Source of the DNA: an uncultured bacterium
Lineage (GTDB): Bacteria > Krumholzibacteriota > Krumholzibacteriia > Krumholzibacteriales > WJIX01
Direction of reading: 5' to 3'
Assembly (NCBI GenBank): GCA_964488475.1
Contig: CAZAUK010000003.1
Coordinates: 46,592-110,591 of the forward strand
DNA length: 64,000 bases
Positions 7,861 through 28,239 of this stretch are shown here, in pieces (the stretch's first letter is position 1; every line of letters starts with the position of its first letter). The position numbers and the translations under genes are program-made. The notes beneath the pieces are model-generated. The model did no database searches. It had not been told where the DNA came from and saw only the letters and a program-made list of their open reading frames with translations.

Positions 7861-8799
7861 ATGCTGCGGTTTGTCAGAAAAAGGCTGCTACAGCTCTTTC
7901 CGATACTTCTGGGGGTTGTTACCGTCACTTTCCTGATAATGTACGTAGTGCCCGGCGATCCGGTCCTTTCACTGGTCGGAGAGAGGTACGATGAAGATAC
8001 CATAAACCGGTTGAGAAGGGAACTGGGCCTGGATAAGCCGCTTTACCTTCAGTATCTGGATTACCTGGCCCGTGTTCTGAAACTTGATTTCGGCAGGTCT
8101 TTCGTCTCCGGCCGGCCGGTGCTCGATTCGATAAAGGAGTATTTTCCCAGAACCCTGCTACTTGCTTTCACCTCCATGGCGATAGCGACCGTGTTCGGCC
8201 TGGCCATTGGTGCCGTATCGTCTCTGGAACGGTTCAGGAGGCTGGGCCGTTTCCTGATGACTTTTTCTTTGGTGGGGGTGTCTATACCGGTATTCTGGCT
8301 GGGTCTTATCCTGATATACCTCTTTTCCATAAAGCTGTCCGTTCTGCCTCCTTCCGGGTACGGAAACGGTTCCCTGAGATATCTGGCGCTTCCCGCGGTA
8401 ACTCTTTCCTTCGCTTCGATGGCTACGGTGGCGAGGGTCTCACGCTCGAGTTTTCTGGAGATCGCTTCAGAGGATTTTGCCAGGACCGCCAGGGCCAAGG
8501 GCCTGAATGAAATGGTGGTTTACGGGAAGCATCTTTTCAGGAACGCGCTCATTCCGGTGGTGACCATAGTGGGAACTGATTTTGGAAGTTATCTCAGCGG
8601 CTCCGTGCTTACCGAATCCATTTTCGGCTGGCCGGGGCTGGGGCGACACATAGTGCAGGCGATACTGAAGAGGGATTTTCCGGTCATTCAGGGGGCGGTG
8701 CTTTTTATGGCGGTCCTTTTTGTAGCTGTAAACCTGATAGTTGACATAAGTTACGTATTAATTGACCCGAGAGTCAGAATAGACGAAAAAAAGGGGTGA
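7861..8799 (+). CDS. ABC transporter permease, DppB/OppB-like
   Basis: A 312 aa protein with six transmembrane helices and the BPD_transp_1 EAA-like loop (ASEDFARTARAKGLNEMVVYGKHLFRNALIPVVT). Confidence 0.85.
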   Translation: MLRFVRKRLLQLFPILLGVVTVTFLIMYVVPGDPVLSLVGERYDEDTINRLRRELGLDKPLYLQYLDYLARVLKLDFGRSFVSGRPVLDSIKEYFPRTLLLAFTSMAIATVFGLAIGAVSSLERFRRLGRFLMTFSLVGVSIPVFWLGLILIYLFSIKLSVLPPSGYGNGSLRYLALPAVTLSFASMATVARVSRSSFLEIASEDFARTARAKGLNEMVVYGKHLFRNALIPVVTIVGTDFGSYLSGSVLTESIFGWPGLGRHIVQAILKRDFPVIQGAVLFMAVLFVAVNLIVDISYVLIDPRVRIDEKKG

Positions 8800-8860
8800 A
8801 TTTGAGCTGAGCGAGACAGTCCGAATAACTAGGGGATTCTTCAGAAACCGGACGGCCGCT

Positions 8861-9697
8861 GTGTCCCTGTTTATCCTGGTAATTATAGTCGCGGGCGCTC
8901 TGGCCGCCGACCTGATAGCGCCCGCTTCGCGCCAGATGATAGACCTTGATAATTCCCTGAAGGCTCCGTCACTTTCCCATCCTTTCGGGACCGATTCTTT
9001 TGGAAGGGATCTCTTCACCAGGGTGGTGAGGGGATCCAGAATCTCCCTTTCCGTGGGATTTGTGGCCAGGACGATATCCCTTTTGATCGGAATGATTCTT
9101 GGGGTGATATCGGGATTTTACGGGGGAAGGGTCGATTCTGTGATTATGAGGCTCGCCGATATAACGTTCGCGTTTCCCACCCTGCTTCTTCTGGTGGCTA
9201 TCATGGCCGTGGTGACTCCTGGAATGATGACCCTTTTCACTGTCCTGGGGGTGGTCGGCTGGGCCGCGGTCGCCAGGCTGGTGAGGGCCCAGGTCCTGGC
9301 CGTAAGAGAGAGGGAATACGTGCAGGCGGCAAGGTCTTCAGGGACGGGAACCCTTTCACTGATCATGCGCCACATTCTGCCCCAGTGCGTTTCACCGGTG
9401 ATAGTGGTTTACACCATGGGCCTTGGTATGACTATAATGGCGGAGGCGAGTCTCAGTTTTCTGGGTTTGGGGGTCCAACCACCGGTTCCCAGCTGGGGAA
9501 GGATGATATCAGACGGTATAATCTTCATGAGGACCGCCTGGTGGCTTACCATATTCCCCGGATTCATACTGACCTTGACAGTATGTTCGCTGAACCTTGT
9601 GGGAGACGGACTCAGGGACGCGCTTGACCCCAGAAGCGCCGGCCCTAAGCGCAGCCGAAGCCGCGGCGGCGTGAGAGTGATCAGAGATGAGTTTTGA
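8861..9697 (+). CDS. ABC transporter permease, DppC/OppC-like; the true start is probably upstream and non-canonical
   Basis: The frame is open from 8783 and encodes a conserved DppC-type N-terminus (ITRGFFRNRTAAVSLFILVIIVAGALAADLIAP) before the first in-frame GTG at 8861. No ATG/GTG/TTG occurs between 8783 and 8861. The permease EAA loop is present. Confidence 0.75.
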   Translation: MSLFILVIIVAGALAADLIAPASRQMIDLDNSLKAPSLSHPFGTDSFGRDLFTRVVRGSRISLSVGFVARTISLLIGMILGVISGFYGGRVDSVIMRLADITFAFPTLLLLVAIMAVVTPGMMTLFTVLGVVGWAAVARLVRAQVLAVREREYVQAARSSGTGTLSLIMRHILPQCVSPVIVVYTMGLGMTIMAEASLSFLGLGVQPPVPSWGRMISDGIIFMRTAWWLTIFPGFILTLTVCSLNLVGDGLRDALDPRSAGPKRSRSRGGVRVIRDEF

Positions 9698-10760
9698 AAA
9701 AGGCATTCGGGATATAGGACTTGTTATAAACCAAGTGGTATCACGGTGCAATTACGCCAACCGCTTCGGATATTATTCGGTTGCTCCCGGCGAGGACGAT
9801 ACCATAGAGATTCAGGTGTGCGGAAAGAATATATGGCTCGAGTTGATCAAGGAATTCGGTCCATCCGTTGGGAATAAACCGCGATCCGGGTCAAGGGTCG
9901 AATTCCGTTTTTCCGGAATCGATATCGGAATGGAATGGCTGCGGGGCCAAGAGGATGCTCTTTTTATGATCAATGACAGCTTGGCCGATGTAAGGAGTGA
10001 ACCATGCGGGAAGGCCGAACTGGTGACTCAGGCTATTCTCGGTGATGAGGCGAGAGTATTCACCGAGAACAGCGGGTGGTCCCTGGTCCGGTTAGACGAC
10101 GGATATACCGGCTGGGTGGAGTCGGGAAATCTGAGCGGAATATCAAGACGGGACGCAGAGGAATGGAAGATAGAGGTCAATGCCATGATAGCAGAGCAGA
10201 TATCGAAATTCTATAATCTACCTGATACGGAGAGCGGCCCTTCCGGGGAATTGTTGGCGGGAACTCTTGTGCGAGTCGTAAATGCCGGAGAACGCTTTTC
10301 GAAGATAGCGCTGCCCGGCGGGGAGCATTTTTTTGTACAGAATGAAGATTTGGAGGGGATTCCTTCCGGCAGGCCGGATTCGGCGGGACTGGTTGGAAGG
10401 GGAAGGTGTTTCATCGGAATCCCCTATCTTTGGGGTGGTACCACCCCCAGGGGATTCGACTGCTCGGGGCTGGTCAAAAGGCTCTACCAGATGGAGGGCA
10501 TACAGCTACCAAGAGACAGCGACCTGCAGGCTGAGGCGGGAGAGCAGATCAGTCTGGAAGAAGCCCTGGGCAGCGGCGGTACGCTTCTGTTCTTCAGCGA
10601 GGGGGGAGAGAGGATCGATCACGTTGCGGTATCCACCGGCGAGGAGGGTTTTATTCACTCCAGCGGCAGGGTCCGCCCGGGTAGTATGAGCTCGAAGGCG
10701 GAGAGTTACGACCGTAAGCTTGCTGATTCCTTCTGCAGGGCGGTGAAGATCCTGGAGTAG
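9687..10760 (+). CDS. NlpC/P60 cell-wall endopeptidase with N-terminal SH3b domains (YkfC-like gamma-D-Glu-diamino acid endopeptidase)
   Basis: The C-terminal segment GIPYLWGGTTPRGFDCSGLVKRLY...IDHVAVSTG...IHSS gives a Cys-His-His catalytic arrangement, and SH3_3-like repeats lie upstream. It follows a dpp-like importer. Confidence 0.75.
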   Translation: MSFEKGIRDIGLVINQVVSRCNYANRFGYYSVAPGEDDTIEIQVCGKNIWLELIKEFGPSVGNKPRSGSRVEFRFSGIDIGMEWLRGQEDALFMINDSLADVRSEPCGKAELVTQAILGDEARVFTENSGWSLVRLDDGYTGWVESGNLSGISRRDAEEWKIEVNAMIAEQISKFYNLPDTESGPSGELLAGTLVRVVNAGERFSKIALPGGEHFFVQNEDLEGIPSGRPDSAGLVGRGRCFIGIPYLWGGTTPRGFDCSGLVKRLYQMEGIQLPRDSDLQAEAGEQISLEEALGSGGTLLFFSEGGERIDHVAVSTGEEGFIHSSGRVRPGSMSSKAESYDRKLADSFCRAVKILE

Positions 10761-10783
10761 GTTTTGAAAAAGTTTGAAGAACG

Positions 10784-10797
10784 AAAGTTTTTTGGGG
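10784..10797. repeat. Direct repeat copy 1 (AAAGTTTTTTGGGG) flanking the promoter of the outer membrane protein gene
   Basis: An exact 14-mer repeated at 10910-10923. Both copies are followed by a similar ..A.GGA..GG context. Confidence 0.6.
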
Positions 10798-10830
10798 TAA
10801 GGACAGGCCGCCAAGGGGGATTCCGGCGTG

Positions 10831-10887
10831 AAAAAAAATGAAAAAAAATTAAAAAAACAGTTGACAGGAGTTTTTGTCTGGTATAGT
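10831..10887 (+). promoter_or_regulatory. Sigma70-like promoter with a phased A-tract upstream element
   Basis: A8 (10831-10838), A8 (10841-10848) and A7 (10851-10857) occur at an exact 10-bp period. They are followed by TTGACA (10861-10866) and TATAGT (10882-10887) with a 15-nt spacer. The alternative -10 TAGTTT gives a 17-nt spacer. The predicted leader to the ATG at 11188 is about 290 nt. Confidence 0.55.
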
Positions 10888-10909
10888 TTCTCGCCCAAAT
10901 ATGGAAAGT

Positions 10910-10923
10910 AAAGTTTTTTGGGG
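10910..10923. repeat. Direct repeat copy 2 (AAAGTTTTTTGGGG), just downstream of the predicted -10
   Basis: Identical to the 14-mer at 10784-10797. It lies 126 bp downstream of copy 1. Confidence 0.6.
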
Positions 10924-11187
10924 CATGGAAGGGGGTTGTTCAAGACTGAATCTGCTAAAGCGCAAGGCTTAGGGATGCAAGAAAGGGTCTGGCGGGCAAA
11001 GCCGCGGGTGCCCTGGAGCTCAGAATTATTTGAAAGGGGGGATGCATAGTCTGAAGGATCTTAGGCGCTGACGGGCGCTCAATCTTAATTCGCATTTATT
11101 GGTACAATCCGCCGAAAAGCGGCGGTGATATAGAAAGCAGTTGTTCCTGGAGTTTTCCTTCGAGGAAATAGCTTGCAGGAGGTAAAA

Positions 11188-12486
11188 ATGAGAAAGTTTT
11201 TCGCAGTTACTCTGGCCGCCATCCTGGTCGCCTCAATGGCGATGCCGGCGATGGCAACTAACAGCAGACTCAGAGCGATGGGCGACGTCGACAGGTACAT
11301 AGAGGATGACGCCAACATCTTCATGTGGCCCGCCACGCTTCCCTCTTACGCCAATCTGCTGATAATGGACATCAATTACCATGGACCGGCGATGTACGGC
11401 ATGACCTACGCGCTGGGCGAATACGGAGACTACGGCGCGCTGGGCCTCTTCTTCATGGAAGATACCGAGGGCCCCAATATTATCGACTGGGAAGGCGAAA
11501 GCCCCATGGGCTGGGCCAAGAACGATATCTTCTCCCAGAATCTCTACAACAAATGGAACCTGATGTACGCCTACGAGATGGAGAAGATGTCCCTGGGTAT
11601 TCGGTTCGTCCGCGCCAGCAACATGGAGCTGACCGACACCACAGATCCAGGAATGAAGGGGGATTTCTCCGAATCGTACACCACTATCGGAGCGTCCTGG
11701 AGGATGGAGTTCAACGAGGAAGTCTATTTCGACCTGGGCTTCGATTACACCATGGCCTCATATTCTGATGAGTACAACGCGTCTTACGACGGCGTACCGC
11801 TCGATTCAAAGGTAAGCGACGACAAGGGAAGCGTCATCAACGCGATGGCCCGAATCTTCTTCGACTACAGCGAAGACCTCACCATAGTGCCCTACATCGG
11901 AGTGGGAATGGCCGAGTTCAATCTCACCTCTAATGATGAGAATTTCTGGATGTACTGGGATGGAATGGGTTACAGCATGGCCAGCGCTCACGGACTCAAG
12001 TGGATGAACTTCGACCTCGGCCTGGCCTTTGACTGGAATGTCAACGAGGACAACATGATCGTCCTGGGCATCGAGCCATTCAGCTATGTCAAGGTAGAGC
12101 CCAGCGAGTACCACGAGGATTTCGACGGAGAGTATCTTGGAAGCATGACCACCATGCCCCGCTTCCTTCTCGCTCTGGAGACGGATGTCAGGGACTGGCT
12201 GACCTTCCGCACCGGCTGCACCAAGGCCCTGACCAAGATGAAGTTCGAGTACAGCGACGGTACCACCGAGTACAATTACGAAGAGGACGAGGCTCCCTTC
12301 GAGTGGTTCCTGGGCCTGGGCTTCCACGTGGGCGATTTCGACATCGACTGCGTGCTGCAGAGAGACGTACCCTTCAAGATGGGTTACTGGCTGACCGGTT
12401 ATCAGACAAACGATTATATGTATCGTGATAACGGTTACGGATACGGCGCTCCCATCGGAAGGATCTCGGCTCTGTATCATTTCTAG
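11188..12486 (+). CDS. Predicted beta-barrel outer membrane protein (porin-like, likely abundant)
   Basis: AGGAGG lies 7 nt upstream of the ATG. The signal peptide is MRKFFAVTLAAILVASMAMPAMA. The mature protein is acidic and rich in aromatic, Asn and Asp residues, with alternating beta-strand character and a C-terminal ...ALYHF (terminal Phe). A strong promoter and terminator flank the gene. Confidence 0.6.
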   Translation: MRKFFAVTLAAILVASMAMPAMATNSRLRAMGDVDRYIEDDANIFMWPATLPSYANLLIMDINYHGPAMYGMTYALGEYGDYGALGLFFMEDTEGPNIIDWEGESPMGWAKNDIFSQNLYNKWNLMYAYEMEKMSLGIRFVRASNMELTDTTDPGMKGDFSESYTTIGASWRMEFNEEVYFDLGFDYTMASYSDEYNASYDGVPLDSKVSDDKGSVINAMARIFFDYSEDLTIVPYIGVGMAEFNLTSNDENFWMYWDGMGYSMASAHGLKWMNFDLGLAFDWNVNEDNMIVLGIEPFSYVKVEPSEYHEDFDGEYLGSMTTMPRFLLALETDVRDWLTFRTGCTKALTKMKFEYSDGTTEYNYEEDEAPFEWFLGLGFHVGDFDIDCVLQRDVPFKMGYWLTGYQTNDYMYRDNGYGYGAPIGRISALYHF

Positions 12487-12514
12487 GATTCAGGCCGAAA
12501 GTGTTTTGAATCGA

Positions 12515-12545
12515 GGGCGGGGTCATACCCCGCCCTTTCTTTATT
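12515..12545 (+). terminator. Rho-independent terminator
   Basis: GGGCGGGG-tcata-CCCCGCCC stem-loop followed by TTTCTTTATT. Confidence 0.8.
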
Positions 12546-12713
12546 CCAGCCTGAGTGAAGATTCACCGCCCGCCCCACCGGCGATGGCCTGCAAATTGCA
12601 ATGGTAATCAACAGTTAATATGACGGACAGGCGGCGTCATAGCGCGCCTTTCGAAGTAAATCCGGTAAAGCCGGCGGTCGAGCGCCGAACCATTGTAACA
12701 AAAAGGTTTCACT

Positions 12714-13955
12714 TTGTACTTCTTCTACTATATTCCCGTGGGGCTTGACATAAGGCCTGAGGGAAGGTCGGCTATAACGAAATTCCTGGCCGCGGTCTGT
12801 GTCCTGGTCTTCGTTCTCTACAATCATTTTCCGGTTGAAAGGTTCTTCAGCCCGGTGAGACTGGTGTTTTTCCCCTTCGCCCCGTCTGTCGCAGCGTCCT
12901 TGACCCACGCCTTCGTGCATACTGGATGGACTCATCTTCTGGGAAATATGGTTTATCTGTTGGTCTTTGGAAGGGCGCTTGAGGGAAGACTGGGGCCGGG
13001 AAGGTTCTTCGCGCTTTTCGCCGTTTCGGCTATGGGGGGAGCGTATACTCATCTTCTTTTGACCAGGCTGTTTATGCCGTCCTTTCTTGGTACGGCGGTG
13101 GCGGGAGCGTCAGGAGCCACCTCCGGTCTTCTGGGAGCCTTTCTGGTTAGATTCCATTACGGGCGCGTACGGGTTGCCTATTGGCTTTTCATGCCTCTTC
13201 AGGGGATAAACAGAGCGGGAAGGTCTTCCGTTCCGGTAATCCTGGCTGTACTTTTCTGGTTACTCTACCAGGGGGTCTACGCGGCCGTTCAGTTCGGAAC
13301 TCACTCTCTGTCGGTGGCTTACGGAGTCCACGTGGGAGGGTTCTTATTCGGCGCCCTGGCGGCGCTTATTTTCGGGGGGCATAAGAGAGCTTCGGAGGAG
13401 AAAAAAATTGAAAAGGCCAGGAGATATTTTAGAAAGGCCGACTGGTTTTCTTCCCAGGCTGAGTATATAAATTACCTTAACGAGTGTCCAGGTGACTCTG
13501 AAGCTCACGCGGAGGCTGCGAGAGCCTGCCTCTGCACCGGAGACGCCGCCACCGCGGGCGATCATTTTGCCGAGTCGATAAGGATATACAGGAAGAGGGG
13601 ACAGCCGGAGAGGGCCGTGGAGACCTTTATTCAGGCGGTGAGGAACGTTCCGCTATTCAGTATGAAGGAAGCAGAATACCTTGATATGGCCTTCGGCGCG
13701 GAAAGATCACTGCGGTATGCCATGGCCGCTGAGGCATATGGGAACTTCCTTAGCCTGTATCCTCTTTCTGGTGAGAGGTCTCTGGTGATGATGAGACTGG
13801 CCGGAATATACTCTGGAAGGTTTCAGGAGCGGGAACGGGCGATGGCGCTTTATCGCAAAGTGCTGACCGATTTTCCCCAGTGCCCGTGGGCGGAATTCGC
13901 AAAAATGAGACTTGCGGCTCTGAAGAGTGAGAATTGTTCCTGCGCCTGGGCCTGA
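12714..13955 (+). CDS. Rhomboid-family intramembrane serine protease fused to a C-terminal TPR-repeat domain
   Basis: Rhomboid motifs are present: GWTHLLGNMVYLLVFG, the catalytic GASGATSG, and the His-containing helix HVGGFLFGALAA. The C-terminal roughly 170 aa form TPR-like helical repeats. The gene starts at a TTG. Confidence 0.7.
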   Translation: MYFFYYIPVGLDIRPEGRSAITKFLAAVCVLVFVLYNHFPVERFFSPVRLVFFPFAPSVAASLTHAFVHTGWTHLLGNMVYLLVFGRALEGRLGPGRFFALFAVSAMGGAYTHLLLTRLFMPSFLGTAVAGASGATSGLLGAFLVRFHYGRVRVAYWLFMPLQGINRAGRSSVPVILAVLFWLLYQGVYAAVQFGTHSLSVAYGVHVGGFLFGALAALIFGGHKRASEEKKIEKARRYFRKADWFSSQAEYINYLNECPGDSEAHAEAARACLCTGDAATAGDHFAESIRIYRKRGQPERAVETFIQAVRNVPLFSMKEAEYLDMAFGAERSLRYAMAAEAYGNFLSLYPLSGERSLVMMRLAGIYSGRFQERERAMALYRKVLTDFPQCPWAEFAKMRLAALKSENCSCAWA

Positions 13956-14077
13956 AATTAAAATAATCCCGGGTATTCACGGGGTCCGCCCCCTGTGAAA
14001 ATTACCGATTAAAATATCTTGAATTAACCCTTTTGTTCTGCTAATTTCAGAAGCGATGAGGGGCGTGGAGGTGTGAT

Positions 14078-14758
14078 GTGGAAGATTATACAGGGCTGTC
14101 TCTGAGAGCGCTCAGAACGAAGCTGCGCTTTAGGGGACTGGACAGGATGAGTGACATCGACTTGGTCGCTCTCGTTCTGGGAAATGGAGCAGGAAGCCCG
14201 GCGGTGTCTATAGCGGGAAGGCTTTTCGAGCGATTCGGAGGACTTGAGGGGATAGTAACAGCAGGCCCGGACGAACTGGCCGGGTTCGCTGGGATAGGCG
14301 CCGCGACGGCGGTTCGTCTTATCGCCTCTTTTGAGGTGGGCCGAAGAAGCGTGCTTTCGGTCAGGGAGAAGGAGATAATCAGGGTCGGTTCTCCGGAGGA
14401 CGTGGCGCAGTTGATGATACCCGAGATGAGATTTCTGGACAGGGAGCATTTCAGGGCCATCCTGCTCAACACCAAGAACGGAATTCTGAAGATAGTAAAC
14501 GTGGCGGTCGGTTCGCTGAACGCCGCGCTGGTTCATCCTAGAGAGATATTCAAGGAGGCGGTGGCTTCCAGCGCCGCGGGTATAATTGTCGTCCATAATC
14601 ATCCCACCGGTAATCCCGAACCAAGCAGCGAGGACCGGGACCTTACGATGCGGTTCGCCGAGTGCGGGGATTTGATAGGAATAGACCTGGTGGATCACAT
14701 AATAATAGGCGGAAACAGTTTCGTCAGCATGAGAGAAAGAGGCGTCTTATCTTTTTGA
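14078..14758 (+). CDS. radC: RadC-family JAMM/MPN-domain protein (UPF0758)
   Basis: HhH-like N-terminus, plus the JAMM motif HNHPSGNPEPSxED and the conserved C-terminal pattern. Confidence 0.85.
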   Translation: MEDYTGLSLRALRTKLRFRGLDRMSDIDLVALVLGNGAGSPAVSIAGRLFERFGGLEGIVTAGPDELAGFAGIGAATAVRLIASFEVGRRSVLSVREKEIIRVGSPEDVAQLMIPEMRFLDREHFRAILLNTKNGILKIVNVAVGSLNAALVHPREIFKEAVASSAAGIIVVHNHPTGNPEPSSEDRDLTMRFAECGDLIGIDLVDHIIIGGNSFVSMRERGVLSF

Positions 14759-14767
14759 AAGGACTTG

Positions 14768-15808
14768 ATGGTGTTTATCAATAATATAGGGAAATATCTT
14801 TCGAACGATATAGCGATAGATCTCGGAACGGCTAATACCCTATGTTTCCTCAAGGGCAGCGGCATAGTCCTGGACGAGCCCTCGGTAGTGGCGATGGACC
14901 AGAAGACCGGAAAGGTCCACGCGGTCGGAATCGAGGCTAAATCCATGCTGGGAAAGACCCCCGACCATATAGCCGCGGTAAGGCCCCTGAAGGACGGAGT
15001 GATAGCCGACTTTGAAGTCACCGAGATCATGCTTCGAGAGTTCATTCGAAAGTCTCTGAAGAAACGTTTTTTCATAAGGCCCAGAATAGTCATAAGCGTT
15101 CCTTCAGGAATCACGGAGGTGGAGAGAAGAGCGGTTATCGATTCCTGCAAGAACGCCGGAGCGAGGGCGGTCTACCTGGTGGCTGAGCCTATAGCGGCCG
15201 CCATAGGGGTGGGCCTTCCGGTGGACAAGCCGTCGGGAAACATGGTCATCGACATCGGGGGAGGCACCACCGAGATAGCGGTTATCGCCCTCAACGGCAT
15301 AGTGACCGATATATCGATCCGTATAGGCGGCGACAAGATGGACGAGATGATCGTCCAGCATATAAAAAAGGCCTACAATCTGCTGATAGGCGACCAGACC
15401 GCTGAAAATATAAAGAAAACCATAGGGGCCGCCGGCAAGACCAGTAAGGAGATGGAGATGGAGATCAAGGGGAGAGACCTTGTTTCAGGTATTCCCAAAA
15501 CGCTGAGGATCTCCAGCGTTGAGATATCCGATGCCCTCTCAGAGCCGCTGGGCAGGATAGTGGCGGCGCTCAAGACCGCCCTGGAACAGACTCCGCCCGA
15601 GTTGGCTGCGGATATAGTAGAGAGGGGTATTGTGATGATGGGAGGGGGAGCTCTGCTAAGGGACCTGGGAGCCCTGTTCAAGGAGGAGACCAATCTTCCC
15701 ATCAATGTGGTAGAGGATCCCCTGACCGCGGTGGTGCTGGGCTGCGGCAAGATACTGAGCGACATACAGAAATACGAAAAGATCATTATGAAGAGTACCC
15801 GGTTGTAA
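14768..15808 (+). CDS. mreB: Rod shape-determining protein MreB
   Basis: IAIDLGTANTLCF...DIGGGTTEIAV... actin-fold motifs, about 346 aa. Confidence 0.95.
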   Translation: MVFINNIGKYLSNDIAIDLGTANTLCFLKGSGIVLDEPSVVAMDQKTGKVHAVGIEAKSMLGKTPDHIAAVRPLKDGVIADFEVTEIMLREFIRKSLKKRFFIRPRIVISVPSGITEVERRAVIDSCKNAGARAVYLVAEPIAAAIGVGLPVDKPSGNMVIDIGGGTTEIAVIALNGIVTDISIRIGGDKMDEMIVQHIKKAYNLLIGDQTAENIKKTIGAAGKTSKEMEMEIKGRDLVSGIPKTLRISSVEISDALSEPLGRIVAALKTALEQTPPELAADIVERGIVMMGGGALLRDLGALFKEETNLPINVVEDPLTAVVLGCGKILSDIQKYEKIIMKSTRL

Positions 15809-28146: not shown

Positions 28147-28231
28147 TGCCGAGGTGGTGGAACTGGTAGACACGCCACTTTGAGGGGGTGGTGAGCGAAA
28201 CGCTTGTGCGGGTTCGAGTCCCGCCCTCGGC
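28147..28231 (+). tRNA. tRNA-Leu, anticodon GAG
   Basis: GCCGAGG...CCTCGGC acceptor stem, anticodon stem CCACT/GGTGG with loop TTGAGGG (anticodon GAG, G37), a long variable arm, GGTTCGAGTCC T-arm and discriminator A. CCA is not encoded. Confidence 0.85.
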
Positions 28232-28239
28232 ATATTATT

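Follow-up and report, generated by a model that had tools for sequence, protein, structure and literature searches.

The stretch of DNA analysed here (the window) comprises 64,000 nucleotides of contig CAZAUK010000003.1 from an uncultured member of the phylum Krumholzibacteriota. The subject of this report is the interval at about 10761-11187, which precedes a gene for a β-barrel outer-membrane protein with a signal peptide (11188-12486; coordinates are those of the window, and all features lie on its plus strand unless stated otherwise). From 5' to 3' the interval holds three phased A-tracts, a sigma-70-type promoter, a 5' leader of ~291 nt (10897-11187) and a Shine-Dalgarno (SD) sequence, CAGGAGG (11176-11182), which is conserved 6-9 nt before a conserved ATG in all loci compared. 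Behind the gene lies an intrinsic terminator (12513-12547), an 11-bp G+C-rich stem (12513-12537) followed by a T-run. I give even chances to the reading, drawn from comparison of these sequences with homologous ones, that the interval is the high-expression cassette of a major β-barrel outer-membrane protein of a Krumholzibacteriota bacterium, combining an upstream-promoter-type (UP-type) promoter, a sequestered SD and decoy blocks on which 30S ribosomal subunits dock.

The gene product belongs to a family without a Pfam domain (none above threshold in the protein), and its 176 relatives in the database are unnamed proteins from metagenome-assembled genomes (MAGs) of Candidatus Krumholzibacteriota and Latescibacterota. 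Homologues begin at the ATG at 11188, which gives a protein of 432 aa ending in Phe. The preliminary description of this DNA had spoken of a probable major, regulated outer-membrane protein of 437 aa with an AGGAGG SD and a strong terminator; the protein class, the SD and the terminator were correctly recognised, while the greater length results from counting from a TTG further upstream (11173), which overlaps the SD. AlphaFold2, run on a 32-sequence alignment, returns a confident β-barrel (predicted local distance difference test, pLDDT, 81; predicted template-modelling score, pTM, 0.80). The best Foldseek match in the PDB is 9gf0, the pentameric OmpA of Bdellovibrio (E = 1.5e-11), with FadL next. 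Assignment of the product as a β-barrel outer-membrane protein is thus supported by the model, and it is probably the major outer-membrane protein of these bacteria.

Some 85 homologous loci, from Krumholzibacteriota and Latescibacterota MAGs and metagenome contigs, form the comparison set. They were gathered by three routes: individual look-ups of homologues, a scan of GTDB genomes with a protein alignment (61 loci), and a scan of metagenomes with a DNA pattern for the leader (27 loci). A scan of genome contigs with a single protein yielded no relatives, whereas the protein-alignment scan did find loci. Behind 24 of the 27 metagenome pattern matches stands a homologue of the barrel protein; in the three without the barrel gene (L071, L083 and L087) a covariance model of the leader, introduced below, finds no leader, and these are probably chance matches. 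As far as the loci compared go, the leader is tied to this one gene only.

The promoter opens with A-tracts of 8, 8 and 7 nucleotides (10831-10838, 10841-10848 and 10851-10857), whose starts, as read from the sequence, are 10 bp apart. They occupy positions -30 to -4 from a -35 hexamer TTGACA (10861-10866), which they adjoin. After a 17-nt spacer, within the norm of 16-18 bp, comes a -10 hexamer TAGTTT (10884-10889), and after that a G+C-rich discriminator CTCGCCC (10890-10896). Both hexamers are near consensus, and TTGACA-N17-TAnnTT occurs at this single site within the whole 64-kb window. The 10-11 bp periodicity of A-tracts at 10825-10865 is likewise the top of the window (power 3.02; next best 1.38). 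Intrinsic curvature, which the preliminary description had proposed checking, reaches 51.7 degrees per 30 bp at the A-tracts, the 99.9th percentile of the window, as estimated with a wedge model. By the same model the start-codon region GGTAAAAATGAGAAAGTTTTTCG (~11175-11215) is also among the highest peaks in the window, at 56.8 degrees per 30 bp.

Conservation of this layout across the homologous loci is the strongest argument that it is a promoter. TTGACA is invariant in ~60 loci and stands 277-406 nt (mostly 320-340 nt) before the start codon in every locus with enough upstream sequence, where chance would supply TTGAC[AT] in the 230-nt search range only ~0.1 times per locus. Among 62 distinct upstream regions, the A content measured from TTGACA peaks at -10..-4 (65-100%), -20..-15 (50-71%) and -31..-24 (44-71%), and T-rich troughs separate the peaks, so that A-tracts are phased every 10-11 bp. 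The -10 element is conserved in position, with T in 50/62, A in 41/62, A in 39/62, any base, T in 38/62 and T in 53/62 at offsets 23-28 from the -35, and CGCCC is kept at offsets 31-35 with A-rich positions after it. All of this persists although the encoded proteins share as little as 27% identity. The phased tracts and TTGACA named in the preliminary description are therefore upheld, but its -10 call, TATAGT (10882-10887), is 2 nt off: it overlaps the conserved TAGTTT and lies only 15 nt from the -35. A genuine UP-element-type promoter, conserved across homologous loci, is well supported by these alignments, and it is from this conservation that I infer promoter function itself. Spacing rules put the predicted transcription start at ~10896-10898, on the A that opens an A-rich stretch.

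Strong sigma-70 promoters with UP elements and phased A-tracts upstream are reportedly the subject of work by Ross, Gourse, Estrem and Aiyar. As in the UP element of Escherichia coli rrnB P1, A-rich DNA here occupies -39 to -65, directly beside a consensus -35. The tracts keep helical phase and, as in ribosomal-RNA promoters, there is a G+C-rich discriminator. The proximal UP subsite has the consensus AAAAAARNR, which the proximal tract AAAAAAACA fits. Unlike the rrnB UP consensus, with its A-then-T pattern, the element consists of three pure A-tracts on one strand, and unlike rrnB P1 it would drive a protein gene in an uncultured phylum of the Fibrobacteres-Chlorobi-Bacteroidetes (FCB) group. 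Because the promoter resembles that of ribosomal RNA, very strong transcription is predicted, possibly linked to growth rate.

In this promoter (10861-10891) and its homologues the -10 region reads TAnnTTt(t/g), and a spacing of TTG-N20-TA also fits a promoter of the Bacteroidetes -33/-7 type, for which the consensus is TTTG ... TAnnTTTG. This hints at a promoter grammar in an FCB-group phylum that is intermediate between the E. coli and Bacteroidetes types.

Around the promoter the window carries an exact 14-nt direct repeat, AAAGTTTTTTGGGG, at 10784-10797 and 10910-10923, which the preliminary description took for two sites at which a regulator might loop out or occlude the promoter. As a feature of the sequence the repeat is sound: no further copy occurs in the window even with 2 mismatches allowed, it extends to an imperfect 24-mer (10784-10807 against 10910-10932, 21/24 matching with one gap), and the local alignment scores 31 where the maximum among 2000 shuffles was 27. 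The copies bracket the promoter at ~-113 and +14 and are 126 bp apart, or 12 helical turns at 10.5 bp per turn, a distance that would suit looping, which has no other support. The 14-mer is not palindromic, and among 94 fetched loci it is absent from all except L001, which is the same genome, though promoter and leader are conserved. The upstream copy sits in an insert of ~50 nt specific to this genome (10779-10830, just upstream of the A-tracts), to which alignment finds no counterpart in the five closest homologous intergenic regions; there the end of the upstream gene leads straight into the A-tracts. The downstream copy (10910-10932 in its extended form) lies within the transcript, beginning ~14 nt into it as predicted, overlaps what in relatives is the 5' strand of a helix P1, and runs into the first of two purine blocks described below. 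At the AAAGTTTTTT part the relatives have unrelated sequence, and common to them is only the GGGG leading into the conserved block. Since no other locus has the 14-mer, an insert confined to this genome holds the upstream copy and the downstream one falls within the transcript, nothing supports an operator or looping role, and I regard such a role as extremely unlikely. Because the similarity extends over 24 nt and the insert also carries an AAGGGGGAT motif further along, the comparisons indicate instead that the beginning of the leader has been partly duplicated in this genome alone, and that the repeat is no conserved control site.

The leader itself is a conserved, structured RNA whose hairpins covary and which probably has a long-range closing helix, P1. 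Its length of ~290 nt in the preliminary description holds (~291 nt), as does the distance from promoter to ATG, at ~320-340 nt. Leaders of the Krumholzibacteria begin with an A-rich tail, followed by the P1 5' strand, purine block 1, at least one variable hairpin and a long hairpin P3. The 3' part then consists of purine block 2, a purine-rich stretch, hairpin H5, the P1 3' strand including GGGAAC, hairpin H6, a junction UnAUAUAGAA, the anti-SD GUUCCUG, hairpin H7 and the SD CAGGAGG. The encoded proteins are only 27-57% identical, yet the leaders agree in length and blocks, and the blocks and hairpins can be followed in 40-53 sequences. The leader matches nothing in Rfam; the searches covered the window at the gathering score, positions 10600-11400 with E values up to 10, and 20 homologous loci. 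Literature searches turned up no description of it, so it would seem to be previously undescribed.

Within the window these elements are found as follows. Hairpin P3 (also H3; GGGUCUGGCGGGC...GCCGCGGGUGCCC) lies at 10985-11013, and its tip is conserved as GG.CUUGCGG...CCGCAAG..CC; RNAalifold recovers it with 7/10 pairs changed on both sides. Hairpin H5 (GGCGCU-GACG-GGCGCU, 11064-11079; RNAalifold) has 4/6 pairs so changed. The counterpart of the conserved GGGAAC is UUGGUACAAU (11099-11108), which belongs to the P1 3' strand in relatives and may alternatively pair with the flank of the anti-SD. In H6 (CCGCCG-AAAAG-CGGCGG, 11109-11125) 98% of cells are paired and 2/4 modelled pairs are changed on both sides; this is the CCGCCG hairpin of the preliminary description, which is present and covarying but was placed ~3 nt too far downstream and given the loop aaaa in place of AAAAG. 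The near-invariant single-stranded junction UGAUAUAGAA follows at 11126-11135, in columns that are invariant or at least 90% conserved. Last come the anti-SD UUGUUCCUG (11141-11149), the core of which, UCCUG, pairs with CAGGA of the SD across H7, and H7 itself (UUUCCU-UCG-AGGAAA, 11154-11168), enclosed by the anti-SD:SD helix and changed on both sides in 5/5 pairs.

RNAalifold on the whole MAFFT alignment gave the anti-SD:SD helix only, and the other helices were sought separately for each module and clade. In the unadjusted MAFFT alignment (40 leaders), standard pairs fill 77% of the cells at the 38 proposed pairs, against 40-50% when the partners are slid, and both bases have changed in 101 cells, where shuffles give 49 ± 7. 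In a model-fitted alignment 94.5% of cells pair. A covariance model of the 3' domain (R1) finds exactly one match per Krumholzibacteria-type locus, and even with filters off its only match in the window is 11084-11193. Attempts to obtain a single P1 register from a fixed-offset pairing matrix or an alignment of mini-constructs gave no clean result, and an alignment-free cognate test was used. Duplexes predicted for each sequence with RNAduplex have clade-specific, compensatory strands (GUGUGUUC:GGAACAUAU, GGGGUUC:GAAUCUC, AUUGCG:CGCAAU, UUGUGU:ACACAA, GUAGC:GCUAC), and cognate P1 strands pair more strongly than non-cognate ones (-8.2 against -6.5 kcal/mol, permutation P < 1e-4). The basal extension of P3 gives P = 0.004 in the same kind of test. 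Neither the covariation counts nor the cognate tests take account of phylogeny.

Pairing of CGCCC with the GGGGG of block 1 was also considered and rejected: as the discriminator, between the -10 and the predicted start, CGCCC probably does not enter the transcript. Nor is the leader likely to be a transcription attenuator, as none of its hairpins has a U-tract after it.

The more distant, Latescibacterota-type loci (L041-L066) keep the promoter and the central AAGGAGGUGAU block; apart from these, the G+C-rich structures conserved in them are their own, and in clade G an invariant CCAUUCCCACCAGAGGAGGUCA stands at the SD. Their leaders are probably one or more sister RNA families.

A strong promoter ~290 nt before a gene, followed by a highly structured RNA, could also mean that the leader is, or yields, an independent small RNA and that transcription of the protein gene begins elsewhere. 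Between promoter and SD no terminator occurs (neither H5 nor H6 has a U-tract), and no other site resembling a promoter was found. The SD is itself part of the conserved structure, the distance to the ATG is fixed, and the leader is always in front of this one gene. This alternative is accordingly most improbable.

At the downstream end of the leader, the SD is held in the conserved anti-SD helix, as modelled. RNAalifold recovers this helix even from a crude global alignment, 94-97% of its cells are paired, and in partition functions the anti-SD is the dominant partner of the SD, with 2.6/5 core bases. Across the family the predicted median unpaired probability of the SD core is 0.002-0.003. 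In L003 and L009, whose anti-SD differs, SD pairing moves to GGCUAAA beside the SD, and by this shift occlusion of the start region is maintained.

An SD sequestered downstream of a large folded domain closed by a P1-like helix recalls the platforms of SD-sequestering riboswitches and RNA thermometers, as does a possible three-way alternative pairing, and the leader might be a riboswitch-like or protein-responsive translational switch. In the off state a signal, whether a ligand, a protein or something else, would stabilise the P1-closed domain, with GGGAAC tied up and the anti-SD free to sequester the SD; in the on state P1 would be open, GGGAAC would pair with GUUCC of the anti-SD and the SD would be free. 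The purine blocks would then be part of a binding pocket or protein site. Such a switch would account for a multi-helix domain closed by a covarying long-range P1 (P1, P3, H5 and H6 all covary) and for invariant single-stranded nucleotides (GAAAGGGGGU twice, GGGAAC and UnAUAUAGAA). The leader does contain three mutually complementary elements: in most clades GGGAAC can pair with GUUCC over 6 bp, at -8 to -10 kcal/mol, and the window keeps the alternative helix through other bases, GGUACAA:UUGUUCC (cognate against non-cognate, P = 0.007). Inclusion of GGGAAC raises the predicted accessibility of the SD in 43/55 leaders, an effect that is detectable but tiny, for the SD is predicted to be nearly fully paired in every construct (median unpaired probability at most 0.003). 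Several clades, L008, L011, L026 and L012 among them, form the alternative helix weakly or not at all. The lack of any Rfam match, and hence of a known aptamer class, distinguishes the leader from known riboswitches, as does the weakness of the switch in silico, and the gene suggests no ligand, encoding a structural barrel protein and not an enzyme or known transporter. Finally, the blocks match the 16S tail too exactly for a binding pocket, including a GGUGAU extension in distant clades. On balance I consider a switch unlikely.

The two blocks are the most distinctive part of the leader, and the expression-cassette reading turns on them. Both contain an invariant SD-like GAAAGGGGGU, ~150 and ~260 nt before the start codon. 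Block 1 (UGGAAGGGGGU, consensus uGAAAGGGGGU) lies at 10926-10936 and, in Krumholzibacteria leaders, at -255 to -265 from the ATG. Block 2 (GAAAGGGGGGAUG, 11032-11044; GAAAGGGGG(gau) in its family form) is present in both phylum-level groups and reads AAGGAGGUGAU in the distant clades. In nearly all of 61 leaders block 2 is the strongest predicted site for the 16S tail, at -127 to -184 from the ATG and -13.9 to -21.9 kcal/mol (L064, which has a run of N at ~1330-1345, the position of block 2, was left out of the block 2 counts). In the Krumholzibacteria block 1 has a predicted pairing energy of -15 to -17 kcal/mol, and the true SD one of -10 to -14. At the centre of the block core only A and G occur, both of which pair with U. 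The distant Latescibacterota-type leaders have no other sequence in common with the window, yet they carry AAGGAGGUGAU(G/C), whose match to the tail extends past the purine core. In the partition functions neither block has a conserved partner in cis. A CsrA-type GGA site is unlikely here, the conserved core being GGGGG or GGAGG and not GGA in a hairpin loop.

Sequences that resemble SDs so closely may be genuine ribosome-binding sites (RBSs) of short upstream open reading frames (ORFs), leader peptides or start-stop elements, that control the gene. In the clade of the window (L008, L009, L003, L011, L005) an AUG does abut block 2, and the closest relatives have 2-codon ORFs there (AUG GAU UAG; AUG AAU UAA; AUG GCC/GCU UAA); the window has one of 9 codons (11042-11071), and distant clades have GGAGGUGAUG. 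By established spacing rules, though, an AUG 0-2 nt after the SD core lies nearer than SD-directed initiation allows. In most leaders neither block is followed at 4-12 nt by an AUG, GUG or UUG, any AUG present abuts the core, and in most Krumholzibacteria leaders no start codon occurs within 12 nt of either block. Neither length nor sequence of the ORFs is conserved, and the start-stop-like element is confined to the clade of the window. Control by upstream ORFs is, on these grounds, very unlikely.

Under the expression-cassette reading, by contrast with translated ORFs, the blocks would dock 30S subunits without initiating translation. The phased A-tracts would act as an UP element, or as curved DNA, contacting the alpha subunit of RNA polymerase, and transcription from the sigma-70-type core (TTGACA, 17-bp spacer, TAGTTT) and discriminator would start near 10897. 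The leader would then fold, in relatives with P1 closing a 5' domain that contains P3 and H5, followed by H6, the junction, the anti-SD UUCCUG, H7 and the SD. Docked 30S subunits may protect a long-lived mRNA from 5'-end-dependent decay, in the manner of a stabilising SD (STAB-SD), and, held on standby, may capture the true SD when the anti-SD:SD helix breathes. Stable, high and ribosome-coupled expression would be the outcome. Such docking requires a AUCACCUCCUUUC-like sequence in the 16S 3' tail.

There are precedents for this scheme. The STAB-SD of cry3A is reportedly due to Agaisse and Lereclus (1996). In Bacillus thuringiensis this element, GAAAGGAGG, lies ~125 nt before the cry3A start and stabilises the mRNA (PMC12970973). 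The blocks described here are similarly without an associated start codon and complementary to the 16S 3' end (PMC12970973, PMC7509114), and they are SD-like, 16S-complementary sequences in a 5' untranslated region (UTR) far from the start codon, which is the positional hallmark of a STAB-SD. They differ from cry3A in that two copies are set in a conserved multi-helix structure, the true SD is also sequestered, the lineage is diderm and the stabilising effect is a putative one. A stabiliser in the 5' UTR of E. coli ompA is said to have been studied by Emory and Belasco, by Chen et al. (1991) and by Arnold et al. (1998). In ompA and ermC mRNAs a strong SD stabilises without translation (PMC7509114). 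Like ompA, the present gene has a long structured leader before what is probably a major outer-membrane protein; unlike that of ompA, which is 133 nt long with a stem-loop at the very 5' end, this leader is more than twice as long, has no similarity to it in sequence or structure, and would begin with an A-rich stretch of ~12-20 nt, counted from the predicted start, that has no conserved pairing. Standby sites are known from the MS2 coat gene and the tisB +42 mRNA, the tisB landing site lying ~100 nt before a sequestered RBS (PMC7708055, PMC5934652). Here too the RBS would be stably sequestered, an element at least ~100 nt upstream could hold a 30S subunit and the predicted 5' tail is unstructured. 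Whereas known standby sites are unstructured and bound non-specifically or through protein S1, these are conserved, perfect SD complements.

Several observations weigh against the docking of 30S subunits and the structure proposed for it. STAB-SDs are known from Firmicutes with RNase J1. All pairing energies assume a canonical 16S 3' tail, and no rRNA gene is present in the window or the fetched loci. Most blocks are GGGGG and not a perfect GGAGG. In single-sequence folding the blocks are mostly paired, with a median unpaired probability of 0.004-0.015 against a background of 0.077, and the sole argument for their accessibility is that no partner in cis is conserved. In this G+C-rich window strongly 16S-complementary sequences are common by chance (74 13-mers at or below -14 kcal/mol to the tail in 2 x 64 kb), and the case for the blocks rests on positional conservation. 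The register of P1 varies by 1-3 nt among clades, 63% of P1 cells pair in the raw alignment, and the window's own P1 is weak (-4 kcal/mol). In the minimum-energy fold of the window (11137-11176) a competing helix of GCAGUUGUUCCU with AGGAAAUAGCUUGC replaces the anti-SD:SD helix, and the SD is partly open, its unpaired probability being 0.29 against a family median of 0.003.

The same elements admit a bolder interpretation, in which the leader senses ribosomes. Free 30S subunits would bind the decoy blocks and pry P1 open (block 1 lies 1-3 nt from its 5' strand), GGGAAC would capture the anti-SD and the true SD would be exposed, alongside a growth-rate-controlled, rRNA-like promoter, the whole being conserved across two candidate phyla. 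I consider this quite unlikely; were it true, synthesis of a major envelope protein would track spare translational capacity.

The surroundings of the gene are themselves conserved. In the window (7861-15808) and in L001, L003 and L005-L007 the order is oppB, oppC, NlpC/P60, a ~400-bp intergenic region with the leader, the barrel gene, a rhomboid-TPR fusion, RadC and MreB. In L002/L008 a barrel gene of the Alginate_exp family, on the opposite strand, lies between NlpC/P60 and the promoter. Elsewhere in the window, an 85-nt tRNA gene at 28148-28232 (+), probably with a long variable arm, is the only Rfam match at the gathering score.

The promoters and post-transcriptional signals of uncultured FCB-group phyla such as the Krumholzibacteriota and Latescibacterota have so far been essentially unknown. 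A promoter footprinted by conservation across ~60 species may guide the prediction of promoters in these lineages and the building of expression tools for them. In function the leader fits best among known 5' UTR devices, as SD sequestration combined with STAB-SD-like or standby-like docking; what is unusual about it is its size, its conservation across two candidate phyla and the presence of two decoy SDs stronger than the real one. If the blocks do dock 30S subunits, they would carry the idea of STAB-SDs and standby sites beyond a handful of model mRNAs in Firmicutes and E. coli, to a natural element conserved in diderm bacteria, and would offer a compact system for learning how ribosome binding without initiation shapes the fate of an mRNA.

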